A DNA stretch of 55,434 nt, taken from a virus. Its lineage: Duplodnaviria; Caudoviricetes. Within the stretch, counting starts at the first letter, position 1, and each line of letters starts with the position of its first letter. The translations under genes were made by a program, and so were the position numbers. Where the stretch lies: IMG/VR virus record IMGVR_UViG_3300025769_000146, positions 1-55,434 of that record, one strand, 5' to 3'. This document shows, piece by piece, positions 5,315-35,735 of this stretch. Below the pieces are notes generated by a model. It was not told the DNA's origin. It did not search any database and saw nothing but the letters and a program-made list of their open reading frames with translations.

Positions 5315-6208
5315 ATGGGGGAGTTTCCTCTCCTGCTGCCCGAAGACGACCAACCCCTCGTCTTCCCCAGAGTCCCCTTCCACATTTATCGGGGCTGGGA
5401 TGCGGTAAACTCAAGCCGACTGAACAAGCTCGGCAAAGGGTCGATGCGGCACTTCCTGGCGGATCATTCAGATTCCACTGCCGCGACCAACCTCGGACGG
5501 GTCTACCATAGTCTGGTGCTGACTCCCGCCCTCTTTACTGCGGAATACATCCTTCAAGGCCAGTGCTCACAGACCACAGCGCGTGGCTCGCAGTGTTCTA
5601 AGAAGGCGCAAGTTGTCATCGACGGCACAATGTTCTGCACCACACATCGACCCAGGGGCATGGAACCAGATGGGGTCGAGGTCGTCACCGCAACGGTTTG
5701 GGATCAAGCACATCGGATGATGGAGGCGACCCTAGAGTTGGACATGGCGGCTTTCCTGCTCGACTCTGCTGTCGAGCGAGAAATGGCCTACGTCTGGACT
5801 GAGGAGACATCCGGTATGCGCTGCAAGGCGTTGATCGATGCCGACTCGTCCGACGAAGACGCGATCATTGATCTGAAGACGACTCGGGACATCAACCCAG
5901 ATGGTTTCCGTCGCTCAATCCTTCGTTACGGCTATCATCGCCAAGCAGCTTTCTACTTCAACGGTGCGCTGAATGTCGGGCGAGCACGAAAGAATTTCTA
6001 CTGGATCGCTCAAGAGTCCGTTCCCCCTTACGACACGGTTGTGTATCAGCCGGGGCCAGACATGATCTCACAGGCAGCGGAGACGTTGTACCGTTGGCTG
6101 TCAGAGATTGGCGAGTGCCGTGAGTCGGATGAGTGGCCTGGGTTTGGGGCGAATGGCAGCGTCACCCTGTTTCTACCTGAGTGGATGAACTACGAGGAGG
6201 AGGAGTAA
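5315..6208 (+). CDS. RecE/exonuclease VIII-like PD-(D/E)XK nuclease (DUF3799-like) with CCCH insert
   Basis: NSSRL, LGRVYHSLVL, CKALID, IIDLKTT and YGYHRQAAFY motifs. Confidence 0.85.
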   Translation: MGEFPLLLPEDDQPLVFPRVPFHIYRGWDAVNSSRLNKLGKGSMRHFLADHSDSTAATNLGRVYHSLVLTPALFTAEYILQGQCSQTTARGSQCSKKAQVVIDGTMFCTTHRPRGMEPDGVEVVTATVWDQAHRMMEATLELDMAAFLLDSAVEREMAYVWTEETSGMRCKALIDADSSDEDAIIDLKTTRDINPDGFRRSILRYGYHRQAAFYFNGALNVGRARKNFYWIAQESVPPYDTVVYQPGPDMISQAAETLYRWLSEIGECRESDEWPGFGANGSVTLFLPEWMNYEEEE

Positions 6209-6209
6209 G

Positions 6210-7148
6210 ATGGATTTCGTAAAGGCGCGAAAATCGCAAGCTAAGGCGCGGGTCGCCTTGATTGGCCCAACCGGAGCAGGGAAGACCTATACCGCGCTCG
6301 TCATGGCGACGGGCATGGCGAAAGAAATCGGAAAGAACGCTTCGATTGTCGTCATCGACACAGAGCATAACTCTGCCGCGAAGTACAGCGATCAGTTCGA
6401 CTTCATGGTTCCTGCTTCGACGCTGCCCGACCACTCCCCTGCGAGTTACGTCAAGGCTATCGAAGCGTGTGAAGATGCTGGCTTCGACATCATCATTATC
6501 GATTCACTGAGTCATGCATGGGTCGGCAAGGGTGGTGCCTTGGAAATGAAGGATCGTTTCGCCGCACGGTCTAAGTCTGGCAACACGTTTCAAGCGTGGG
6601 CCAAGGTGACGCCGGAGCACAACGCTCTGATGGAGAAGTTGATTTCGTCCAAGGCTCACATCATCGCTACTATGCGGTCCAAGATGTCGTATGTCCAAGA
6701 GAAAGACGAGCGTGGGCGGACTCAGATCCGCAAGGTCGGCATGGCTCCGGTTCAGCGTGATGGCGTTGAGTATGAGTTCGATCTGATCGGCGACATCTCT
6801 CGCGAGCATACGATGACCATCGACAAGACTCGTTGGAGCGATATCGACAGCTTCCATGGGATCGTGACGGAGAACTTCGGTCGTGATCTGGTCCGGTGGC
6901 TTTCGGACGGTGTCGAGGCTCCCACGACCGCTGCTCGCGACTACAAGAGCCAGGTTCGCGACTACTTGAAGGCCAATCCAGATTTCGACTTCAACGCTTT
7001 TGTGTCTCAGGTCGTTGTCGATGCCCTTCCTGTTGAGTCAGACCCTAAGACATGGACAGAGGGTGATTTCCGTGAGGTCTTCGCGATGCTCCCCCAGGGA
7101 GGCACGAAGAAGGCGAAAAAGAAGAAGGGGAAGATCGCAGTTAACTAG
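6210..7148 (+). CDS. Sak4-like AAA ATPase (recombinase)
   Basis: Walker A GPTGAGKT, IDTE, IIIDSLSHAW, QRDGVEYEFD; next to the exonuclease. Confidence 0.85.
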   Translation: MDFVKARKSQAKARVALIGPTGAGKTYTALVMATGMAKEIGKNASIVVIDTEHNSAAKYSDQFDFMVPASTLPDHSPASYVKAIEACEDAGFDIIIIDSLSHAWVGKGGALEMKDRFAARSKSGNTFQAWAKVTPEHNALMEKLISSKAHIIATMRSKMSYVQEKDERGRTQIRKVGMAPVQRDGVEYEFDLIGDISREHTMTIDKTRWSDIDSFHGIVTENFGRDLVRWLSDGVEAPTTAARDYKSQVRDYLKANPDFDFNAFVSQVVVDALPVESDPKTWTEGDFREVFAMLPQGGTKKAKKKKGKIAVN

Positions 7149-7178
7149 GCAAGGCGTCGGGGCACCATCACATGAGAG

Positions 7179-7706
7179 GTGAAGATGTTTCGCACGATCC
7201 TTACTGTTGCTCTTCTTTTTGCAATCAGCCCTAGTGGCATTGCAGTGTCTGAGGTGGATGGATCGACACCTGTGCCTCTGCCAGAACCGTGGGAGCACCA
7301 TGTCTCAGACATTGAATCCAGCCTCTATCGTTGGCCCTTAGCGGACAGTTCCCTTGTTCCTCGAGTAGCGAACGCGGTAGCCAAGAATGCTTACAAGGCG
7401 GGGGTGAAGCCGGACTTAGTCCTAGCTGTCATGCGTGTCGAGAATCCTTGGTTGAAACCGGACACGGTTAGCTATGCGGGCGCAGTCGGTCTTCTTCAGG
7501 TGATGCCGCGTTACTGGAGTGAGGAGTTTCCTCATTGTGGTTACGACCTTGCCGACATCGACACAAATATCTGCAAAGGTGTTCTGATCCTACTCCACTA
7601 CTTAGAAACCAACGTCGATCTTGAACGTGCGCTGCTGGCTTACAACGGGTGCCGTTCGGCTTACTGCGAGGTCTATTACGATCATGTCACGCGACACCTT
7701 GACTGA
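7179..7706 (+). CDS. Lytic transglycosylase (SLT domain) with signal peptide
   Basis: AVMRVEN (catalytic Glu), GAVGLLQVMP, NICKG and ALLAYNG; hydrophobic N-terminus. Confidence 0.88.
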   Translation: MKMFRTILTVALLFAISPSGIAVSEVDGSTPVPLPEPWEHHVSDIESSLYRWPLADSSLVPRVANAVAKNAYKAGVKPDLVLAVMRVENPWLKPDTVSYAGAVGLLQVMPRYWSEEFPHCGYDLADIDTNICKGVLILLHYLETNVDLERALLAYNGCRSAYCEVYYDHVTRHLD

Positions 7707-8079
7707 TACAGAGTCGGCTGGTGGCACTCGCTATTCTGAGGGCAAGCCTTCAGGTTGGTGGTTCGCCCCCTTGAAGGGTTTGGAGTTGATCATGCCGGTG
7801 GCGACTGCCGGTGCCAAGAAGTATGCGCCCAAGGATTGGTTGGTCGGCCAGAGTTACTCCACGCTTCTCGACTGCGGAATGCGCCACATGATACAGGTCA
7901 TGCATTACGGAGTGGAAGCGAAAGACGCCGAAACGGGCCACCTACACCTCGCTCACGCAACATGGAATTTTCTCGCCCTACTCACTTTCATGGCTCTGGG
8001 TCGGGACGACCTAGACGATGTAAGCGTGTGGGATGGTGTCACAGCGGCAGAGCGCGACTCCGTTGATGCGAAGTGGTGA
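7684..8079 (+). CDS. dATP/dGTP diphosphohydrolase (DUF5664-like)
   Basis: GTRYSEGKP, GAKKYAPKDW, MRH and DAETGHLHLAHATWN. Confidence 0.85.
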   Translation: MSRDTLTDTESAGGTRYSEGKPSGWWFAPLKGLELIMPVATAGAKKYAPKDWLVGQSYSTLLDCGMRHMIQVMHYGVEAKDAETGHLHLAHATWNFLALLTFMALGRDDLDDVSVWDGVTAAERDSVDAKW

Positions 8080-8091
8080 GTGTGTAGTTGA

Positions 8092-8886
8092 ATGGAATTG
8101 AAGCACACTTTCTTCTCATCCGCCGCCTGGCTAAAGCCACGAAGGTTCTCTCAGCCTGAAGCGTTTCTGGACTTGGTGGGCTCGTATGAGTCAGGGATCG
8201 TTAAGGGCGAGGCTCGGGATTTTTTTTCCCTGCGGTGGTCGTGGGCACCCGACGAGGTGGAGCGATTCACTCAGTCCTTGGTCGATTCGGGGTGGTGGAA
8301 CCCCAAAAGGGAGCGTGTGGGGCGACCGGCGATCCGCCACGGTCTAGCACAAGGACCACCCGCCGCGCAACGTGAGATGGTAGAGGCCCTTCATAAGCTC
8401 TACAACGAACTTTTTGGTCGTCGCCTTACACTCACCAAAGCCCGTCGTGCGGCTTACGGTTGCCTTCTCTTCGCAGGACTGAACAAGGAAAAAGACCCGT
8501 TGGACAAATTTCGCAAGCTCTGTCGGGTCGTTCAGTCTAAGGAGTTCTATATGAGTGATCTGAAGCTCCACGCTCCAGAGTCGTTGTTTCGCAATACAGA
8601 TAGGTGTGAGTCTTGGTTAGAAGAGGCTTCAGGCCACAAGCCCCTCTCCCCGTCTCATGCGGAGGAGAGGAAGAAATTGTCAGGATTTGTTCGTCCTACG
8701 CCTAGTCAGCCAAGCCTAGAAACACCAGACATCAATGCGCTATATGCCGCCATGAGCGCGGAGCAACAAACGGTTCTTCAAGCTGAATTCAATGAGCGCA
8801 AGAAGCGCCTGACGGGCCTATCGCGATTCCGTGACACAATGGAAGAGGCTGTTTGGAGCGAGATCGTGACGAGGGCTGCGCGTTGA
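8092..8886 (+). CDS. Putative replication initiator / helicase loader
   Basis: FSQPEAFLDL...RWSW...VERF resembles phage replisome-organiser N-termini; coupled to dnaB. Confidence 0.55.
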   Translation: MELKHTFFSSAAWLKPRRFSQPEAFLDLVGSYESGIVKGEARDFFSLRWSWAPDEVERFTQSLVDSGWWNPKRERVGRPAIRHGLAQGPPAAQREMVEALHKLYNELFGRRLTLTKARRAAYGCLLFAGLNKEKDPLDKFRKLCRVVQSKEFYMSDLKLHAPESLFRNTDRCESWLEEASGHKPLSPSHAEERKKLSGFVRPTPSQPSLETPDINALYAAMSAEQQTVLQAEFNERKKRLTGLSRFRDTMEEAVWSEIVTRAAR

Positions 8887-10250
8887 TCGATCAGATACCT
8901 CAGTCGCGTGAAGCGGAAGAGAGTGTCGTCTGCGCTCTTTTGGCTGACCCAGATTTGGCGAGTGTGGCTACGGCGATCATCCAGCCGTCACACTTCTATT
9001 GGACGAGCCTAGGCCACATCTACGAAGCCATCCTTCAGGTTCTGTCTTCAGGTGGCGCACCAACCCCGGTTGCGATTCACGAAAAGCTGAAGAGCAACGG
9101 GACAGTGGAAGCTGTCGGTGGTATCAACACCTTGGCGGAAATGTACGGCGCTCCTGTTGACTTGAGCGTGGACTATCTCGAAACGCATTGTAAAATCGTA
9201 TCCGATTACGCGGCACTTCGGGCTACGGTCGAGGTTTGCCGCCAGGGTATTGTCAGTGCGACGAGCGGCAACACAGATCAGTCACCCAGAGAGATCATCG
9301 ATTCAATTGAATCGTTAATCCTTGAGGTCCAGGTCGGAGCCAATCACGAACAAACAAGTGCCAGGGCTGCGGATCTCATCTTCGATACAGTCGAGCGATT
9401 GGAGCGTTATGAGCCATCACGCAACGGTATCACTGGAATCGGTACGGGGTTCCGTGACCTAGATCGAATGACGGGTGGATTGCAGCCAGGCCAATTGTTG
9501 ATCGTTGCTGGGCGTCCTTCGATGGGCAAGACGGCTTTTGCGTTGAATGTTGCGATGAATGTGGCGCGGGGTAAGGACCATGGCGAAGTAGCTGTTTTCA
9601 GCCTCGAAATGGATACGGACAGTCTTATGGAGAGGCTGTTGTCCGCAGAGGCAATGGTGTCTGCTCATCAATGGCGGCGTGGTGCAATGACACCAGAGGA
9701 AATCAAACGGGTTAACGTGGGAGCAAGCTCCATCAGTGCCTCGACGTTGTGGATTGATGACCATGCCACCCAGACCGTGCTCGACATACGATCTAAGTGT
9801 CGTCGGCTCAAGGCGTCCCCCAGGGGCTTGAAGCTGGTCTTGATTGACTACCTTCAGCTTCTTAGACCAGTTAGTGGATCTTCAAGCCGCTCACGGGAAC
9901 AAGAGGTTGCTCAGATGAGCCTCGCGCTGAAAGGGCTCGCTCGAGAACTTAGAGTGCCCGTCATCTGCCTATCACAGTTGTCGCGTTCTCCAGAGCAACG
10001 GCAGGACAAGCGCCCCATGCTTTCAGACCTACGCGAGTCTGGCTCCATAGAACAGGACGCCGACTTGGTGGCTTTTCTGTTCCGGCCAGAGTACTATTTC
10101 CGTGACGATCCGGCGCTTGAAGGTGCTGCGGAACTAATCCTAGCCAAGCAGAGGAACGGGCCAACGGGTTCGATACCACTCTATTGGCATCGGGGGTACA
10201 CGCGCTTCGATGACGCGGAACACGCGCAAGAAGAAAGATTCGCCTACTAA
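8883..10250 (+). CDS. dnaB: Replicative DNA helicase DnaB
   Basis: PQSREAEESV, GRPSMGKT, FSLEM, IDYLQL, LSQLSR, DLRESGSIEQDAD and KQRNGPTG; TTG start at 8883. Confidence 0.97.
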   Translation: MIDQIPQSREAEESVVCALLADPDLASVATAIIQPSHFYWTSLGHIYEAILQVLSSGGAPTPVAIHEKLKSNGTVEAVGGINTLAEMYGAPVDLSVDYLETHCKIVSDYAALRATVEVCRQGIVSATSGNTDQSPREIIDSIESLILEVQVGANHEQTSARAADLIFDTVERLERYEPSRNGITGIGTGFRDLDRMTGGLQPGQLLIVAGRPSMGKTAFALNVAMNVARGKDHGEVAVFSLEMDTDSLMERLLSAEAMVSAHQWRRGAMTPEEIKRVNVGASSISASTLWIDDHATQTVLDIRSKCRRLKASPRGLKLVLIDYLQLLRPVSGSSSRSREQEVAQMSLALKGLARELRVPVICLSQLSRSPEQRQDKRPMLSDLRESGSIEQDADLVAFLFRPEYYFRDDPALEGAAELILAKQRNGPTGSIPLYWHRGYTRFDDAEHAQEERFAY

Positions 10251-19182: not shown

Positions 19183-19926
19183 ATGACTCACGAAGCACTC
19201 CTGCTTCGCATCCGCAAGCTCCGCGATCACGCGGACAGTGCGGCGGCTATCGGCAACGAGCATGAGGCTGCTGCGTTCGCGGCCAAGGTTAGCGAACTCC
19301 TGGCGCAGCACCGTCTGACCGCAACCGACATCGACTTCTCTCGTTATGAGCAAGAGGATGTCCAAGCGGAACAGGTGGACACCCGCGACATGGGTGTCGG
19401 TGGCGCAAGGAAGAGCACCCCTTGGGTGTCCCAACTGGCAAGCACTCTGGCGAGCCATCATGGATGCCGGATGTACTACACCAGTGGAACGAGCCGCATC
19501 ACCATTGTCGGCAAGGAATCAGATCGCGCTGTCGCGACCTACCTTCTCTCGCGCTTGGTGGCTGACCTCGACCGACTGTCGCGAAAAGCACTCAAGCAGT
19601 ACAAGGCTGAGTACGAATACGCGCCTCGTTACTGGCGTCGGTCTTGGCTAGAGGGTGCCGTCGATGGCATCCGTCGCCAGCTTCGTGACGCTAGGGTTAA
19701 GCGTGAACAGCAGTACGCCGGGAACACGACGGCCCTTGTGCGACTCGCCACCGGAACTGAAGCGGCTGACGCATGGATCAACGACAACGTCAGGCTTCGG
19801 TCTGCCACACCTCGCTACGCCAACACGCATAGCGGAGCATACTCAAGCGGACGCTCGCACGGGGCGGCGATGAACCTCAACGCAAACGGTTTGGGTCAGA
19901 GCCGGTCGAATGGAGCACTGAGATGA
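19183..19926 (+). CDS. DUF2786-domain protein
   Basis: LLRIRKLRDHA...NEHEAAAFAAKVSELLAQHRL N-terminus; RRSWLEG and AYSSGRSHG C-terminal motifs. Confidence 0.85.
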   Translation: MTHEALLLRIRKLRDHADSAAAIGNEHEAAAFAAKVSELLAQHRLTATDIDFSRYEQEDVQAEQVDTRDMGVGGARKSTPWVSQLASTLASHHGCRMYYTSGTSRITIVGKESDRAVATYLLSRLVADLDRLSRKALKQYKAEYEYAPRYWRRSWLEGAVDGIRRQLRDARVKREQQYAGNTTALVRLATGTEAADAWINDNVRLRSATPRYANTHSGAYSSGRSHGAAMNLNANGLGQSRSNGALR

Positions 19927-20234
19927 GCAAGGTGACGAGGTCAACGAAAGACGCGCTCACACGGCTGGCGGCACTCATGCCAGAGTTTGTGGTCGAGCCG
20001 ACAGGGGAGCGTGGGCGGGTCATGTTTGGGACAGCCCATGACCCGTGGGGTCTAGGGCTCGTATCCAAGCGGTACACCGACGCACTTGGCTTGATGGCAG
20101 AGGTGGCTCGCGGTCGCGATAACGCTGACGACATTCGTCTGGCAGTCAGGTGGGGTGGCAAGTCCCCAACTGGTCTGCCCTCACACTACGAGGTCGCTTT
20201 CGAGTGGCTCGGCAATTGGGAGGATGGAGCATGA
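19923..20234 (+). CDS. Hypothetical protein
   Basis: Coupled ORF (ATGA overlaps). Confidence 0.6.
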   Translation: MSKVTRSTKDALTRLAALMPEFVVEPTGERGRVMFGTAHDPWGLGLVSKRYTDALGLMAEVARGRDNADDIRLAVRWGGKSPTGLPSHYEVAFEWLGNWEDGA

Positions 20235-21280
20235 TTAATGAAATTCTGGCTCGACTAGACAACGCCCACGACCGTGGTGCCGTGATCGCATCGTTTGCCG
20301 GAATGACGTTGCGCGACATCGCAGCCGCCCAGCCGGAGGATGTCTTGGACGGCTGGAGCCCACCAAGCTCCTACGATCATGGCCGCGCCTTGAGTGTTGA
20401 TGAGTCGATCGATCTGTTGAGCCTCGCGGACTCTCGTCGTGATTACGCCATCCTCTACCTCGCCACTGTGATGGGGCTACGGCAGATTGAGATTCGCCGA
20501 CTCACCTGGAGTGATGTTCTCGACAACGACTCTTTGCGGGTTGTGGGCAAGGGTGGGAAGAGGCGCACTGTTCCTGTCGGCATGAGTGCCCTCGAGTTGC
20601 TCCCAGAGCGCGGCGATAGTCCGTTTGTCTTCACCTCATACAGGGGCGGTTCGATCAGTGAGTCGGGTATGAGGCTCATTATTTCGAACTACCTAGAGCG
20701 TGTCACAGACACCTCGACGCCCCACGCGCTACGCCACACCTCTTTGACGGCGATGCTTGATCAAGGTGCCGACATCCGTACAGCCATGGAGCTTGCTGGT
20801 CACTCCTCCGTGTCGTCGCATGAAGTGTATGCGGCTACGTCCTCTTCATGGATCGTTCGCGAATGGGTCGAGCGTCACCCGCTTGGTGAGGTTCCGTGCG
20901 TGACCGTTCGCATCCCCGGTACGCCGTTCAAAGGCAAGATGGCTCGGGGGGTGGAGAGGGCCGTGCTGGTGCCATCACGATACGCAGATGATGTACGAGC
21001 AGCTTTGGCCTACTTTGGGAACGCCAAACAAATGACGAATCGTGCTCGCAAGATCGGTGTGCGTTTCCAAGAGATTCGTGATGCCGGTGCTATTGGCATG
21101 GTCGAGGCAGACGCGCACCCATTCCTTATTGCCATGTGCATGGGTACGACCCCAGGTAACGTGATCCGTCGCCGATTTGACCGCATGACTTCAGATGCAA
21201 ACAATGCGCGAGTTGATGCCGTCGCTAGTGTGCGTCAGATGTTCACAACAAACAGATTCATAGAGGTGGCAGCAACATGA
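20231..21280 (+). CDS. Tyrosine recombinase (Xer-like catalytic domain) with degenerate recombinase-like flanks
   Basis: Complete catalytic set: GLR, GKGGK, HALRH, GHSS, EVY. No recognisable N-terminal core-binding domain. Confidence 0.88.
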   Translation: MINEILARLDNAHDRGAVIASFAGMTLRDIAAAQPEDVLDGWSPPSSYDHGRALSVDESIDLLSLADSRRDYAILYLATVMGLRQIEIRRLTWSDVLDNDSLRVVGKGGKRRTVPVGMSALELLPERGDSPFVFTSYRGGSISESGMRLIISNYLERVTDTSTPHALRHTSLTAMLDQGADIRTAMELAGHSSVSSHEVYAATSSSWIVREWVERHPLGEVPCVTVRIPGTPFKGKMARGVERAVLVPSRYADDVRAALAYFGNAKQMTNRARKIGVRFQEIRDAGAIGMVEADAHPFLIAMCMGTTPGNVIRRRFDRMTSDANNARVDAVASVRQMFTTNRFIEVAAT

Positions 21281-21414
21281 TCACAACCATCTGGAGTGCG
21301 ACGGTCTTAGCCGTCTACACTTATGCCGTCTGGCGACACGGCTGGAGGAGGGGACGCCGGACAACGCTGGCGCGGCTCAGTGGTCGAACGCTTCGGAACT
21401 GGTGGGAACGATGA
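21277..21414 (+). CDS. Small TM/basic protein (45 aa)
   Basis: GAGGTGG RBS, ATGA overlap; MITTIWSATVLAVYTYAVWRHGWRRGRR. Confidence 0.5.
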   Translation: MITTIWSATVLAVYTYAVWRHGWRRGRRTTLARLSGRTLRNWWER

Positions 21415-21589
21415 AGATGGTCTTGACCGCTGTGCCGATCACGTTCGCGGAAGCGTCAGGAGACGCCCATGACTGACTGCGAACACTGCGTTTGATTGAC
21501 CAGAAAGGGGGAGGTAATATCACCCTCAAGTGTCGGTCGCGTACTGCGCCACAGAACACGGGTATCCTCGTAACCCCTTCCGACGCCTA

Positions 21590-21632
21590 GCCCCTCCGAC
21601 CTTCCATATCGCCCCTTCCTGGTCGGAGGGGC
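21590..21632. terminator. Hairpin between convergent transcription units
   Basis: 12-bp perfect stem GCCCCTCCGACC / GGTCGGAGGGGC. Confidence 0.6.
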
Positions 21633-21640
21633 GCTGTCGT

Positions 21641-22111
21641 TTAGGGTGCTAGACGGAGTTCCGTGATCGGCAGCAACTGATGTTGCGGAACGAAGTACGC
21701 CGGGGATCTGACATCCTCTCGCCAGAAGTTCTTGTTCTTGCCGACATCTGTGTGGATATAGCCACGGACCCTCAAGTTCCAGTGGTCACCCGTCACAAGA
21801 GCGGAGTATGGAGCATCGTCGTGGGGGTAGATGATCAGCGACCCGTTATCGCGTTCAGTCCAGCGGACACTGATCCCGCCGCTGACATCTTCTGAGGATG
21901 GGTCGGGCACCAACCCATTAGACAGCCACTCGCGTCCTGTTGCCTCTGTGACCAACCACTCTGCGGCGGCAGACATCCCATCGACATACCTCTGACGATC
22001 GGTCGAGGGTTTCCACCCGTATCGGTGGGTGCCACCACGCGCTCTGGCGGCTTCCGATCTTCTTAGTCCGACTTTGTAGGCTGCGATCAAGCCTTCAAGA
22101 TTGTCGGGCAT
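21641..22111 (-). CDS. Hypothetical phage protein (possible PD-(D/E)XK-like fold)
   Basis: GMSAAAEWLV...D...ISVRWT...AYFVPQHQL pattern. Confidence 0.55.
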   Translation of the reverse strand: MPDNLEGLIAAYKVGLRRSEAARARGGTHRYGWKPSTDRQRYVDGMSAAAEWLVTEATGREWLSNGLVPDPSSEDVSGGISVRWTERDNGSLIIYPHDDAPYSALVTGDHWNLRVRGYIHTDVGKNKNFWREDVRSPAYFVPQHQLLPITELRLAP

Positions 22112-22117
22112 CAAAAT

Positions 22118-22885
22118 TCAGACCATGCAGAAACCGGAATCACAACCACCAAAAAGATCCAAGTTGTCATGGTCGAGTACGGCATCCTGAAGAGACACCC
22201 GACTCTTGTGCAGGAACAAAAGCCCATCTCTCTCGTCCTTATCCTGAATCTCTTTTTCGAGTTCTATGGCTTTCTGCCACTCCTCGGGGTAGTTGTCCCG
22301 AATGTGTCTCCATTCTTCATTGGATCGATACGGGCACATCCAACACGCTGACCTGGGCGGGGTAGGCAACCCAGACAGTTGCACCAGGTTAATACACTCA
22401 TCTCTTCGGCGTGGCACATCTAAAAGCAAAGGCCAGTGATAGTGCAGCCAGGGAATCCCACTAGGCTTCGCACGATGAACCTCATCGACAGAGATTCCTA
22501 ACCACATTCTTGCTGGATTCTTTTTGCCATAGCCTTGATCTTTTGCCCACCGACTAATCACACGTTTCTTCCACTCGTTACTACAGAAGCCAGGCAGGGC
22601 ACCAGATTCCCCAGTGAATGCAGGGATCAAGAGATCACCATTGAGCGCGTAGAGGTCTACTGTTGCGTAATCGTGTGACGCAATCTCGACCTCAAGGCCA
22701 ACGGGTTCCAGTAACGGGTTCACCACATCGCGCGTGTAATCCCATGTCTCCTGGGCCTCGCGCCCTGTGTCTGCGATCACCACCCTATCGGGACGAGGTA
22801 ACTCGCCCCTAGCAACCAACACGGCGATTGCTACTGATTGAGTGCCGCCTCCGTAGGACCAAATGATCGGCAGTTCGTCGCTCAT
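22118..22885 (-). CDS. PAPS-reductase-like (adenine nucleotide alpha hydrolase) Fe-S protein
   Basis: SYGGGTQS PP-loop, ADTGRE, CSNEWK, GISVDE, SACWMCPY and C-terminal CDSGFC. Confidence 0.82.
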   Translation of the reverse strand: MSDELPIIWSYGGGTQSVAIAVLVARGELPRPDRVVIADTGREAQETWDYTRDVVNPLLEPVGLEVEIASHDYATVDLYALNGDLLIPAFTGESGALPGFCSNEWKKRVISRWAKDQGYGKKNPARMWLGISVDEVHRAKPSGIPWLHYHWPLLLDVPRRRDECINLVQLSGLPTPPRSACWMCPYRSNEEWRHIRDNYPEEWQKAIELEKEIQDKDERDGLLFLHKSRVSLQDAVLDHDNLDLFGGCDSGFCMV

Positions 22886-33870: not shown

Positions 33871-34029
33871 GTGTCTTCGATCCACACCCCTCTCCCTGAA
33901 GTGTATGAGCGTGTCGCCCGTATGGAATTCCTCTCCCGTCTCGACCTGCTCAGTCGTCGGCTTGAGGTTCTGGATGCCACGCTCGTAAGGCTCCACACGG
34001 CACTTCAAGCGAAGGACTCGCCATCGTGA
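33871..34029 (+). CDS. Small coiled-coil protein (52 aa)
   Basis: Read by hand: same GGAGATTAAxCTGTG start context as 33523; GTGA overlap with terL. Confidence 0.5.
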   Translation: MSSIHTPLPEVYERVARMEFLSRLDLLSRRLEVLDATLVRLHTALQAKDSPS

Positions 34030-35735
34030 GCCGCCCCTCGTTCCATGAATGGTTGTTCGTCAACGTCGATTGGCGCATCAGTTCAGGAGCGATGAAGGGT
34101 CAGCGATACACGTTTGACGCTTTCCCTTGTATTGAGGCTCTCGTTCGCGACGATTCTCACGAACAGGTCGTGATGAAGTCGGCCCAGATGGCTCTTTCCG
34201 AACAGTACACTCTTCAGCGTCCGCTCTACCACCTAGATGTCCATGGCAGAAACTGGGGCATCATGTTTCCGACCCAGGCGACGATGCGAAACTTCTACAA
34301 GTCTCGTATCCAAGGTGCGCTGGCTGCGAACCCTATCATCAATGGTCAGACGCTTCGTGCGAACGAGGACTCCATCGATGTGTTTGGTCGGTCGTTATAC
34401 CTCCGGTACACGACGAGTGAGGGTGCTATCGCGACCTTCGACGCGGACGGGATCACGATTGACGAGGCTGACATCCACAATCCCGACACTTTGTACGGTG
34501 CAAAGACGAGTCGTCGCCAGGGAGCGATGGGTAAGACCTTCTGGTACGAGATTTCGACCCCAACGTACCCCAACCATGGCGTCCATCTGAGCTTTGCGAA
34601 CTCTGACCAGCACATTTGGCTCATCAAGTGTGCCGGATGCGGCTCAGAGAACGATTTAACGTCTCAAATCGGGCCTTATGACGCTTCTGACGCCGATAAA
34701 TTCTTCCGTGAGTACCTTTCGGAGTCCGCTTTTCCCGATTCTCGCGATTTTGCGATTCCGTGTGTGAAATGTGGGAAAGCATTGGACCTCGTTACCCCTC
34801 TGGACCCCGCAAACCCCTCTTTTGGCGGCGGCAGATGGGTTCCGCGCTACGAAGATCGTGATACTCGCGGCTACCACATCCAAATCTTCCAAAGATTGTA
34901 CGAGGGTGGCTCCCCAGCGGTGTTGGCGCGTATTCGGGAGAGCCTTTTGGGGGCTCGCAAGACTCAACACGTTCGGCGTTGGTGGAATTTCACGATTGGC
35001 GTCCCCTACGTCCCCGCAGAGGGTCGCCTAACGGATGCCGACCTCGCTATGGCGACGACGAACGATTATCGCGAGTGGTCGCCTCTATACGGTCGGACGA
35101 TGTTCGGCTTGGCGGGTGAACACGCCGATTGGATGGGTGTTGATGTGCGGGAAGGTCAATACCATGTGTTTTGCCTCAAACGCCTCACAGATGGCACAAA
35201 GATCGTGAGTGCGGTCGGCTGGGTGCCCACCTCGACTGATTTGCGGGCTCTCTGGGATCGTCTAGGTCGCCCTCATTTCATCATGGACTCTGAGCCTGAC
35301 CTGAACGAGTCTCGCACCCTTGTCAGTGCGATGGGTCGTCGTGCCCACCGTGGCAAGTTCTCTCAGAAGCTCGGTGCGCTCTGGGCTATTGGTTCCGACA
35401 AGAACATGGTGGTCGTAAAACGTCCTGCCGTCATGGAGTCGGTCAAAGCGGAGGTGCTCGAGGGTAGCTGGGTCGTACCCTCAGAAGCCTGGGATGTTGG
35501 TGCGGGCATCGTTAAGCGAAAAGGCTCGACCGAAGAAGAGGAGACTCTCTCCCGCCATTTCAAGGCTCCGACGATGGTCGAGGTCGAGGTGTCGTCAACG
35601 GGTGCGATTACCTACGACTTCCCTAAGTCTGCTATGGGCGGTGTTGATCCCCACTACTACATGGCGGCGTGTCTTGCCTGGGTAGCTGCGGACATGAAAT
35701 CCGCGCCCGCTTTTAGGCTAAGAGTCCCTCGATAG
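34026..35735 (+). CDS. terL: Terminase large subunit, lambda gpA-like
   Basis: VVMKSAQMALSE (Walker A variant), IDEAD, ISTPT, CAGC...CVKC and nuclease MGVDV. Confidence 0.9.
   Translation: MSRPSFHEWLFVNVDWRISSGAMKGQRYTFDAFPCIEALVRDDSHEQVVMKSAQMALSEQYTLQRPLYHLDVHGRNWGIMFPTQATMRNFYKSRIQGALAANPIINGQTLRANEDSIDVFGRSLYLRYTTSEGAIATFDADGITIDEADIHNPDTLYGAKTSRRQGAMGKTFWYEISTPTYPNHGVHLSFANSDQHIWLIKCAGCGSENDLTSQIGPYDASDADKFFREYLSESAFPDSRDFAIPCVKCGKALDLVTPLDPANPSFGGGRWVPRYEDRDTRGYHIQIFQRLYEGGSPAVLARIRESLLGARKTQHVRRWWNFTIGVPYVPAEGRLTDADLAMATTNDYREWSPLYGRTMFGLAGEHADWMGVDVREGQYHVFCLKRLTDGTKIVSAVGWVPTSTDLRALWDRLGRPHFIMDSEPDLNESRTLVSAMGRRAHRGKFSQKLGALWAIGSDKNMVVVKRPAVMESVKAEVLEGSWVVPSEAWDVGAGIVKRKGSTEEEETLSRHFKAPTMVEVEVSSTGAITYDFPKSAMGGVDPHYYMAACLAWVAADMKSAPAFRLRVPR

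Follow-up and report, generated by a model that had tools for sequence, protein, structure and literature searches.

The linear virus record IMGVR_UViG_3300025769_000146 of the IMG/VR database (55,434 bases, ~89% complete by estimate; the full length is referred to here as the window) carries a gene for a tyrosine recombinase (YR) with what is probably a nested domain layout. Profile comparisons and structural models suggest that the first (residues 38–40) and second (residues 223–228) strands of one domain are separated by an insert, an intact YR catalytic domain. The domain that holds the insert would be made up of residues 1–45 and ~218–320 and has probably lost five of its six catalytic residues. 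The combined reading, that a catalytic domain lies inside a dead domain of catalytic-domain fold and that the protein is an active enzyme, is considered likely. The gene is an open reading frame (ORF) of 349 uninterrupted codons on the plus strand, with an ATG at nt 20231 and a stop codon at nt 21278–21280, and its product gives the only match to the PF00589 family within the 55,434-base record.

The central part of the protein is a bona fide YR catalytic domain with all of the catalytic residues. PF00589 (Pfam) matches residues 67–203 (E = 7.9e-25, 88 bits compared to a cut-off of 27.1), and the 'integrase' family phrog_1 (PHROGs) matches residues 52–204 (E = 7.2e-31); neither library contains a family that explains residues 1–51 and 205–349. 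A first-pass annotation of this DNA had placed a full R-K-HxxR-H-Y set at nt ~20380–20880, and all six residues were found inside that range: R84 (nt 20480–82), K107 (nt 20549–51), H165 (nt 20723–25), R168 (nt 20732–34), H191 (nt 20801–03) and Y200 (nt 20828–30). They align with the Xer consensus positions and are invariant in the family alignment (13/13 sequences). In the AlphaFold2 (AF2) model the domain begins with helices at residues 56–64, 69–79 and 85–89, continues with strands at 92–115, and is completed by helices on to residue 204. The features that define the YR superfamily are therefore present together, namely a PF00589 profile score above the curated threshold, the catalytic residue set and the catalytic-domain fold. 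Hardly any weight is given to the idea that the protein no longer recombines DNA and serves as a DNA-binding regulator, like the YR-like phage repressors MrpR and SroF.

The segments on either side of the central domain, designated the N-flank and C-flank, were compared by profile-profile alignment (hhalign), using 19 sequences for the N-flank, 22 for the C-flank and a Xer profile built from 80 sequences, a diverse set that included Xer proteins and integrases. The N-flank aligned to profile positions 128–184, which extend from the start of the catalytic domain to its first strand (P = 1.2e-4), and the C-flank to positions 176–311, which begin at the Lys-bearing hairpin and end with the Tyr helix (P = 1.6e-3, 111 columns). 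Together the flanks fall on complementary, collinear halves of the catalytic-domain profile. Their scores of 28.8 (N-flank) and 28.0 (C-flank) were attained by none of 100 column shuffles in either case (9.8 ± 2.0, maximum 17.9, and 12.3 ± 2.3, maximum 21.0, respectively), and reversed alignments scored 9.9 and 10.7. With a Xer profile limited to the catalytic domain, residues 1–48 gave P = 6.2e-5 (score 28.5) and the C-flank (residues 205–340) P = 6.5e-4, while neither flank matched a profile limited to the core-binding domain (N-flank score 10.0, P = 0.2; C-flank P = 0.5).

The alignments place T26 of the N-flank on the catalytic Arg I, and the strand pair 223–248 on the Lys-bearing hairpin. 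Further along the C-flank, the HxxR motif corresponds to Q280 and R283, the His of the GH motif to T306 and the nucleophilic Tyr to F316. The registers previously drawn by eye, with a box I that lacks the catalytic Arg in the N-terminal piece and changes of His to Gln, GH to GT and Tyr to Phe in the C-terminal piece, were thus recovered, at scores above those of the shuffled and reversed controls. The usual core-binding domain had also been described as absent, and this agrees with the lack of any SAM-like Pfam family match in the protein at E ≤ 10 and with the background score of the N-flank against the core-binding profile. Only 48 residues precede the central domain.

Structure prediction gave a similar picture. 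The full-length AF2 model, computed on the family alignment, has a predicted local distance difference test (pLDDT) score of 86.4 and a predicted template modelling (pTM) score of 0.77, with pLDDT values of 89–97 in the N-flank. The flank elements are helices 2–8, 12–23 and 27–32 and strand 38–40 on one side of the central domain, and on the other side strands 223–228 and 243–248 followed by helices 249–261, 265–275, 279–292, 297–304 and 308–313. In the composite flank domain the elements follow one another as they do in the central domain (three helices, three strands, five helices), and the model is therefore consistent with the earlier proposal of a second YR fold, with the flanks predicted to pack as one domain. 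When residues 1–48 and 205–349 were co-folded as two chains, the interface score (ipSAE) was 0.85, compared to 0.00 for the best of three controls; a mark of 0.85 is attained by 58 of 80 solved complexes and by 2 of 110 mismatched pairs. Contact agreement between runs was at least 96%, and partner pLDDT at least 88. In the predicted contacts, strand 38–39 pairs with 225–226 and helix 12–23 packs on helices 249–261 and 279–287. Residues 21–22, just before the Arg I equivalent, contact residues 282–283 at the Arg II equivalent, an arrangement that would be expected in the core of a YR active site. As both pieces belong to a single chain and the training data include YR structures, the co-folding result is a measure of likeness to the YR core rather than independent proof of it, or of binding.

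The C-flank folded alone gave a pLDDT of 84.2. A Foldseek search of the PDB with this model returned nothing at E ≤ 0.001 (top match XerH, E = 0.32), nor did a search of the viral library BFVD, in which integrases (ranks 2, 3, 10, 17 and 19) and topoisomerases (ranks 7 and 9) were only enriched near the top. An exhaustive VIA search with the C-flank was swamped by coiled-coil matches to the last helix, and with the full model the VIA list was filled by the central domain, so that the flanks were not probed. In the ESM Atlas, the features of residues 205–349 scored 0.95 to clusters of PF16795 and PF00589, with 19 of 30 matches in the PF00589 set, and seven of the ten structure rows were PF00589 proteins aligned to residues 217–318 (template modelling (TM) score 0.47–0.52), although the tool itself warns that its scores are uncalibrated for parts of proteins. 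The structure rows for residues 1–48 were YR proteins, but the stretch is too short for this to mean much.

Relatives with the same layout, a search for which had been suggested along with the first-pass annotation, were found. A word-indexed search covering 5.8 billion proteins gave 92 matches, 12 of which (P0002–P0013, 344–397 aa, 36–96% identical) span at least 91% of the query including the flanks; the other 80 are ordinary Xer proteins and integrases that cover only the central 38–61%. Six further loci encode the nested architecture, two in IMG/VR (L002, L003) and four in metagenomes (L035, L036, L037, L038). The C-flank alone, searched with HMMER against 1.84 billion cluster representatives, matched 11 proteins, and eight of these (343–389 aa) carry it at the same C-terminal position, after an intact YR domain. 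Other matches were P0096 (290 aa), with its start within the central domain, and P0103 (139 aa), which consists of the C-flank alone; either may be a fragment. A 621-aa repeat protein (P0099), with nine matched stretches on query residues 4–48, was set aside as a probable low-complexity match. From the HMMER result, the C-flank is essentially never found apart from the nested architecture. The homologues with this layout amount to ~20 sequence clusters, all on phage or metagenome contigs.

The composite flank domain probably has the YR fold without its catalytic site. In the profile alignment, the equivalents of the catalytic positions are T26, T231, Q280, R283, T306 and F316, and so only Arg II (R283) is kept. 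R283 is invariant in 22 sequences, members of the wider family have F, Y, W or L at the Tyr position, and the flank hairpin bears a seven-residue basic insertion. Along with R283, the residues R243, R273, K274, R318 and the pair H296-P297 are invariant or nearly so. The dead domain is not decaying, and is under purifying selection as strong as that on the active domain. In 10 of 12 homologues the globular C-flank is conserved at least as much as the central domain, and the proportion of nonsynonymous differences (pN) was 0.092 in the C-flank vs. 0.116 in the central domain for L035, 0.258 vs. 0.299 for L037 and 0.279 vs. 0.295 for L038, all at saturated synonymous difference. Residues 321–349, beyond the globular part, are only 10–52% identical in 10 of the 12 homologues, and this C-terminal helix draws coiled-coil matches only in structure searches.

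The first-pass annotation had described an active domain nested in a dead copy of itself. The nesting is supported by the profiles, by fold matches that are weak but in agreement and by the predicted packing. The description as a copy of itself is not, since the flanks resemble unrelated Xer proteins at least as closely as their own insert: with hhalign, the C-flank scored 20.8 to the central domain compared to 28.0 to the Xer profile, and the N-flank 27.1 compared to 28.8. The accompanying proposal of a pseudo-dimer that may act as a nickase, topoisomerase-IB-like enzyme, resolvase or regulator is likewise unsupported as worded, since the analyses do not tell these functions apart and the models carry no information on the placement of the two domains on DNA. 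With similarities of this kind an internal duplication looks the same as the insertion of one YR gene into another, and on sequence grounds the two origins are equally possible.

Several results weigh against the nested reading. The PF00589 model finds no flank match at E ≤ 10 (Pfam), and the HH-suite probabilities of the flank matches are modest (16–65%, and 28–65% for the collinear matches to YR catalytic domains). With only the 13 close homologues, hhalign comparisons of the flanks to the central domain were non-significant (N-flank E = 0.082, C-flank E = 0.27), and the profile signal emerged only once distant family members and the broad Xer profile were added. Fold comparisons with known structures were made on single flank pieces, and the ESM Atlas features of residues 1–48 pointed to the SAM-like families PF02899, PF13495 and PF12834 (0.86–0.88), not to PF00589. 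A pattern-limited scan of prokaryote genomes, one for each of 185,579 species, gave 14 loci, none extending past residue 244, with no C-flank and no prophage copy, although this absence carries little weight because the scan relies on two peptide patterns. A recombination site was likewise not identified, and it is by inference that the dead domain is taken to bind DNA, the two domains to form a clamp and the protein to be catalytically active. No single test of the flank fold is decisive; rather, several weak tests agree.

One alternative is that the flanks form a single accessory alpha/beta domain for DNA binding or oligomerisation that is not homologous to the YR fold and resembles it by chance or convergence, in which case the protein would be an ordinary catalytic domain with a novel split accessory domain. 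The modest probabilities and the failure of Pfam to detect the flanks would fit this view, and helix-rich fragments of 100 residues often obtain TM scores of ~0.5, yet two independent pieces fall on complementary and collinear halves of the catalytic domain in the expected register, at scores not reached by any shuffle and with no core-binding match. The invariant R283 lies exactly on Arg II, and in three different structure searches (Foldseek with VIA, BFVD and the ESM Atlas) the highest or almost the highest ranks among globular matches go to YRs and topoisomerase IB, which are aligned to the same part of the fold. This alternative is regarded as unlikely.

The SAM-like matches of residues 1–48 raise a second alternative, of a conventional domain order without nesting, in which the N-flank is a shrunken core-binding remnant, located before the catalytic domain as core-binding domains normally are, and the C-flank is a separate extension. 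These Atlas scores are, however, under the lead threshold of 0.9 used by the tool, and the shared features are few (44–60 of 256). The clear preference of the N-flank for the catalytic over the core-binding-only profile argues in the same direction, as does the co-folded model, in which residues 38–39 are predicted to extend the sheet of the C-flank and helix 12–23 to lie on its helices. A four-helix core-binding domain needs more than 48 residues. A remnant of this type is thought very unlikely.

If the protein is nested as proposed, Y200 of the central domain would cleave and rejoin DNA, and the dead domain may take over both the role and the chain position of the absent core-binding domain. 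It would be joined to the active domain, in the way expected of a core-binding domain, by a short linker with the conserved residues W-x-P-P (W42, P44, P45). The basic residues R243, R273, K274, R283 and R318 of the dead domain could hold DNA and so provide a second DNA-binding lobe, and with a basic domain in the core-binding role the site would be gripped by two catalytic-domain-like lobes, only one of which is able to cut. The dead domain may also receive helix 207–215, which comes after the active-site Tyr, and the variable terminal helix 321–349 may link or contact other chains. Integration, multimer resolution or another site-specific event in phage DNA are possible reactions.

We lean towards this clamp model over one in which the protein acts as a pseudo-dimer on two half-sites. 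A single-chain pseudo-dimer would hard-wire the 'half-of-the-sites' rule, with the dead domain standing for the silent protomer, and is rated as improbable. Helix 207–215 would then be accepted in cis and helix 321–349 offered to a second chain, so that two chains could form a tetramer-like synapse with two active sites and exchange one strand pair. The reaction would stop at the Holliday junction, to be finished by a separate resolvase or by replication, as in the XerC-only and integron pathways. The L002 and L003 members, which are distant ones within the family, are arranged tail-to-tail with the gene of a RuvC-like resolvase. The module in question (L002 8612–13275 and L003 11096–15742, minus strand) specifies the RuvC-like phrog_159 protein (E = 5.6e-20 in L002, 5.2e-17 in L003), DnaB, a DnaD-like loader, an unknown protein of 413–434 aa and a RecE-like exonuclease. 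In the window there is no RuvC-like match to phrog_159, and the link to RuvC is therefore not family-wide; a 163-aa ORF located after dnaB in the window is unrelated.

The clamp model can be set beside other YR systems. Simple Xer-type YRs (XerA, 5hxy/4a8e; XerH, 5jjv; XerD, 1a0p) and the small integrase of mycobacteriophage Brujita (5vfz) begin with a core-binding domain of four helices, to which the catalytic domain is attached on the C-terminal side, whereas the window protein has no core-binding domain and its catalytic domain appears to be embedded in a dead YR-like domain. MpsA/MpsB of Salmonella genomic island 1 and TcpM of pCW3 are atypical YR-like relaxases whose core-binding function does not come from a conventional N-terminal domain of their own, and they illustrate that a nicking enzyme can be based on a YR catalytic domain whose partner module is of a non-standard kind. 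Their partner is a separate core-binding-type protein and their setting is conjugative transfer; in the window protein the partner would be a fused dead domain of catalytic fold, encoded in a phage replication/recombination gene region. Compared to type IB topoisomerases and protelomerases (3m4a, 2h7f, TelA 4f43, TelK 2v6e), the matches to YRs are clearly stronger, and the family profile is PF00589. A protelomerase of the TelK/TelA/TelN type was rejected, as the window has no long palindromic telomere-resolution site: a scan for inverted repeats with arms at most 60 nt apart yielded just two, of 16 nt and 88% complementarity.

According to the 2021 YR classification (PMC8138268), all YRs possess at least core-binding and catalytic domains, with or without an arm-binding domain. 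Lacking a core-binding domain, the window protein does not qualify as a 'simple YR' in those terms. The nearest precedent in that text for duplication of a YR domain within one chain is RitA of the 'recombinase in trio' elements, which has two sequential core-binding domains. RitA duplicates the core-binding domain in tandem, whereas the window protein would carry the catalytic fold twice in a nested arrangement, with one copy inactive. A nested or duplicated YR catalytic fold was not described in any of the full texts searched, a set that excluded subscription journals and supplements.

The features of the gene and its immediate surroundings are summarised in Table 1.

Table 1. Positions in the window of the recombinase ORF, its domains and the downstream hairpin.
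Feature	Position (nt)	Strand	Details and basis
Whole ORF, tyrosine recombinase with probable nested layout	20231..21280	+	349 aa plus stop; ORF translation
N-flank, residues 1–48; probable counterpart of the first helices and strand beta1 of a YR catalytic domain	20231..20374	+	Three helices and one strand, T26 replacing Arg I; AF2, hhalign, co-folding
Central intact YR catalytic domain, residues 49–204	20375..20842	+	R84, K107, H165, R168, H191, Y200
C-flank, residues 205–320; probable counterpart of a YR catalytic domain from beta2 through the Tyr helix	20843..21190	+	Connecting helix 207–215, two-strand hairpin, five helices; T231, Q280, R283, T306, F316
Variable long C-terminal helix, residues 321–349	21191..21277	+	AF2 helix 321–348, pLDDT down to 49
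Terminator-like hairpin and T-rich tail, closing the plus strand gene cluster, inside a conserved intergenic stretch	21610..21643	+	Consensus scan

The recombinase gene ends a plus strand cluster that includes a DUF2786/DUF7168 protein and small unknown ORFs. Convergent to it are a phrog_18407 gene and one that is PAPS-reductase-like. Genes for an exonuclease, a Sak4-like annealing protein and DnaB are found at nt 5315–10250, 10–15 kb upstream of the recombinase. Neither a repressor or excisionase nor a tRNA gene or att-like repeat could be recognised in the window. The start codon of the recombinase overlaps the stop codon of the preceding ORF (ATGA). This upstream ORF (nt 19923–20234, plus strand, 103 aa) belongs to no Pfam or PHROG family and is 48% identical (E = 4e-29) to a sequence at L038 1066–1413. 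It was considered as a conserved partner and discarded, being kept in L038, missing upstream of the gene in L035 and L037, and replaced by other ORFs in L002 and L003. A 45-codon ORF (nt 21277–21414, plus strand) overlaps the recombinase stop codon in the same manner (ATGA) and specifies a hydrophobic N-terminus and an Arg-rich tail; it has no homologue in the retrieved loci.

Between the convergent genes lies ~100 nt of conserved non-coding DNA (window nt 21540–21645, L035 ~2000–2100, L036 ~900–1000). It contains a 12-nt inverted repeat (nt 21590–21601/21621–21632) and, nested with it, a hairpin (nt 21610–21633) with a 9-pair stem and 6-nt loop, followed by a T-rich tail (consensus scan). The hairpin stretch is kept in both L035 and L036, in the former with one compensatory change across the arms. 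The inverted repeat was examined as a candidate recombination site and rejected in favour of an intrinsic terminator, on account of the stem, loop and T-rich tail. The conserved hairpin is best read as an intrinsic terminator, and less probably as a protein-binding site.

The window represents a phage lineage without a close isolate in a collection of 50,697 phage records. Within that collection the whole recombinase matched 455 records, none at a coverage of 80% or more, and no match was returned by tblastn with the C-flank (E ≤ 1) or by blastn with the 4-kb region around the gene. The large terminase (nt 34026–35735, plus strand) shares no more than 26% identity with its counterpart in any deposited phage, the best covered matches being from Acinetobacter, Pseudomonas and Exiguobacterium phages. 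Two other comparisons concern exchange between relatives. P0007 (355 aa) is 52% identical to the window protein in the N-flank, 66% in the central domain, 96% in the C-flank and 93% in the tail, values that imply that lineages have recombined close to where the central domain meets the C-flank. In L036 (1004–2248, corresponding to window nt 21641–22885), the two genes downstream of the recombinase are 98–99% identical to those of the window and the recombinase itself 88%, which points to mosaic exchange around the recombinase gene.

If the nested architecture is correct, a YR catalytic fold could be recruited as the DNA-binding or partner module of the enzyme itself, and the protein would exemplify something rare in nature, a domain that hosts another domain of its own fold. 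As a natural asymmetric recombinase, 'one live, one dead', it would also bear on how half of the active sites stay silent, and on how single-chain or heterospecific recombinases might be designed for use in genome engineering. The ~20 sequence clusters, seen on phage and metagenome contigs only, would then mark a small and previously unnamed family.

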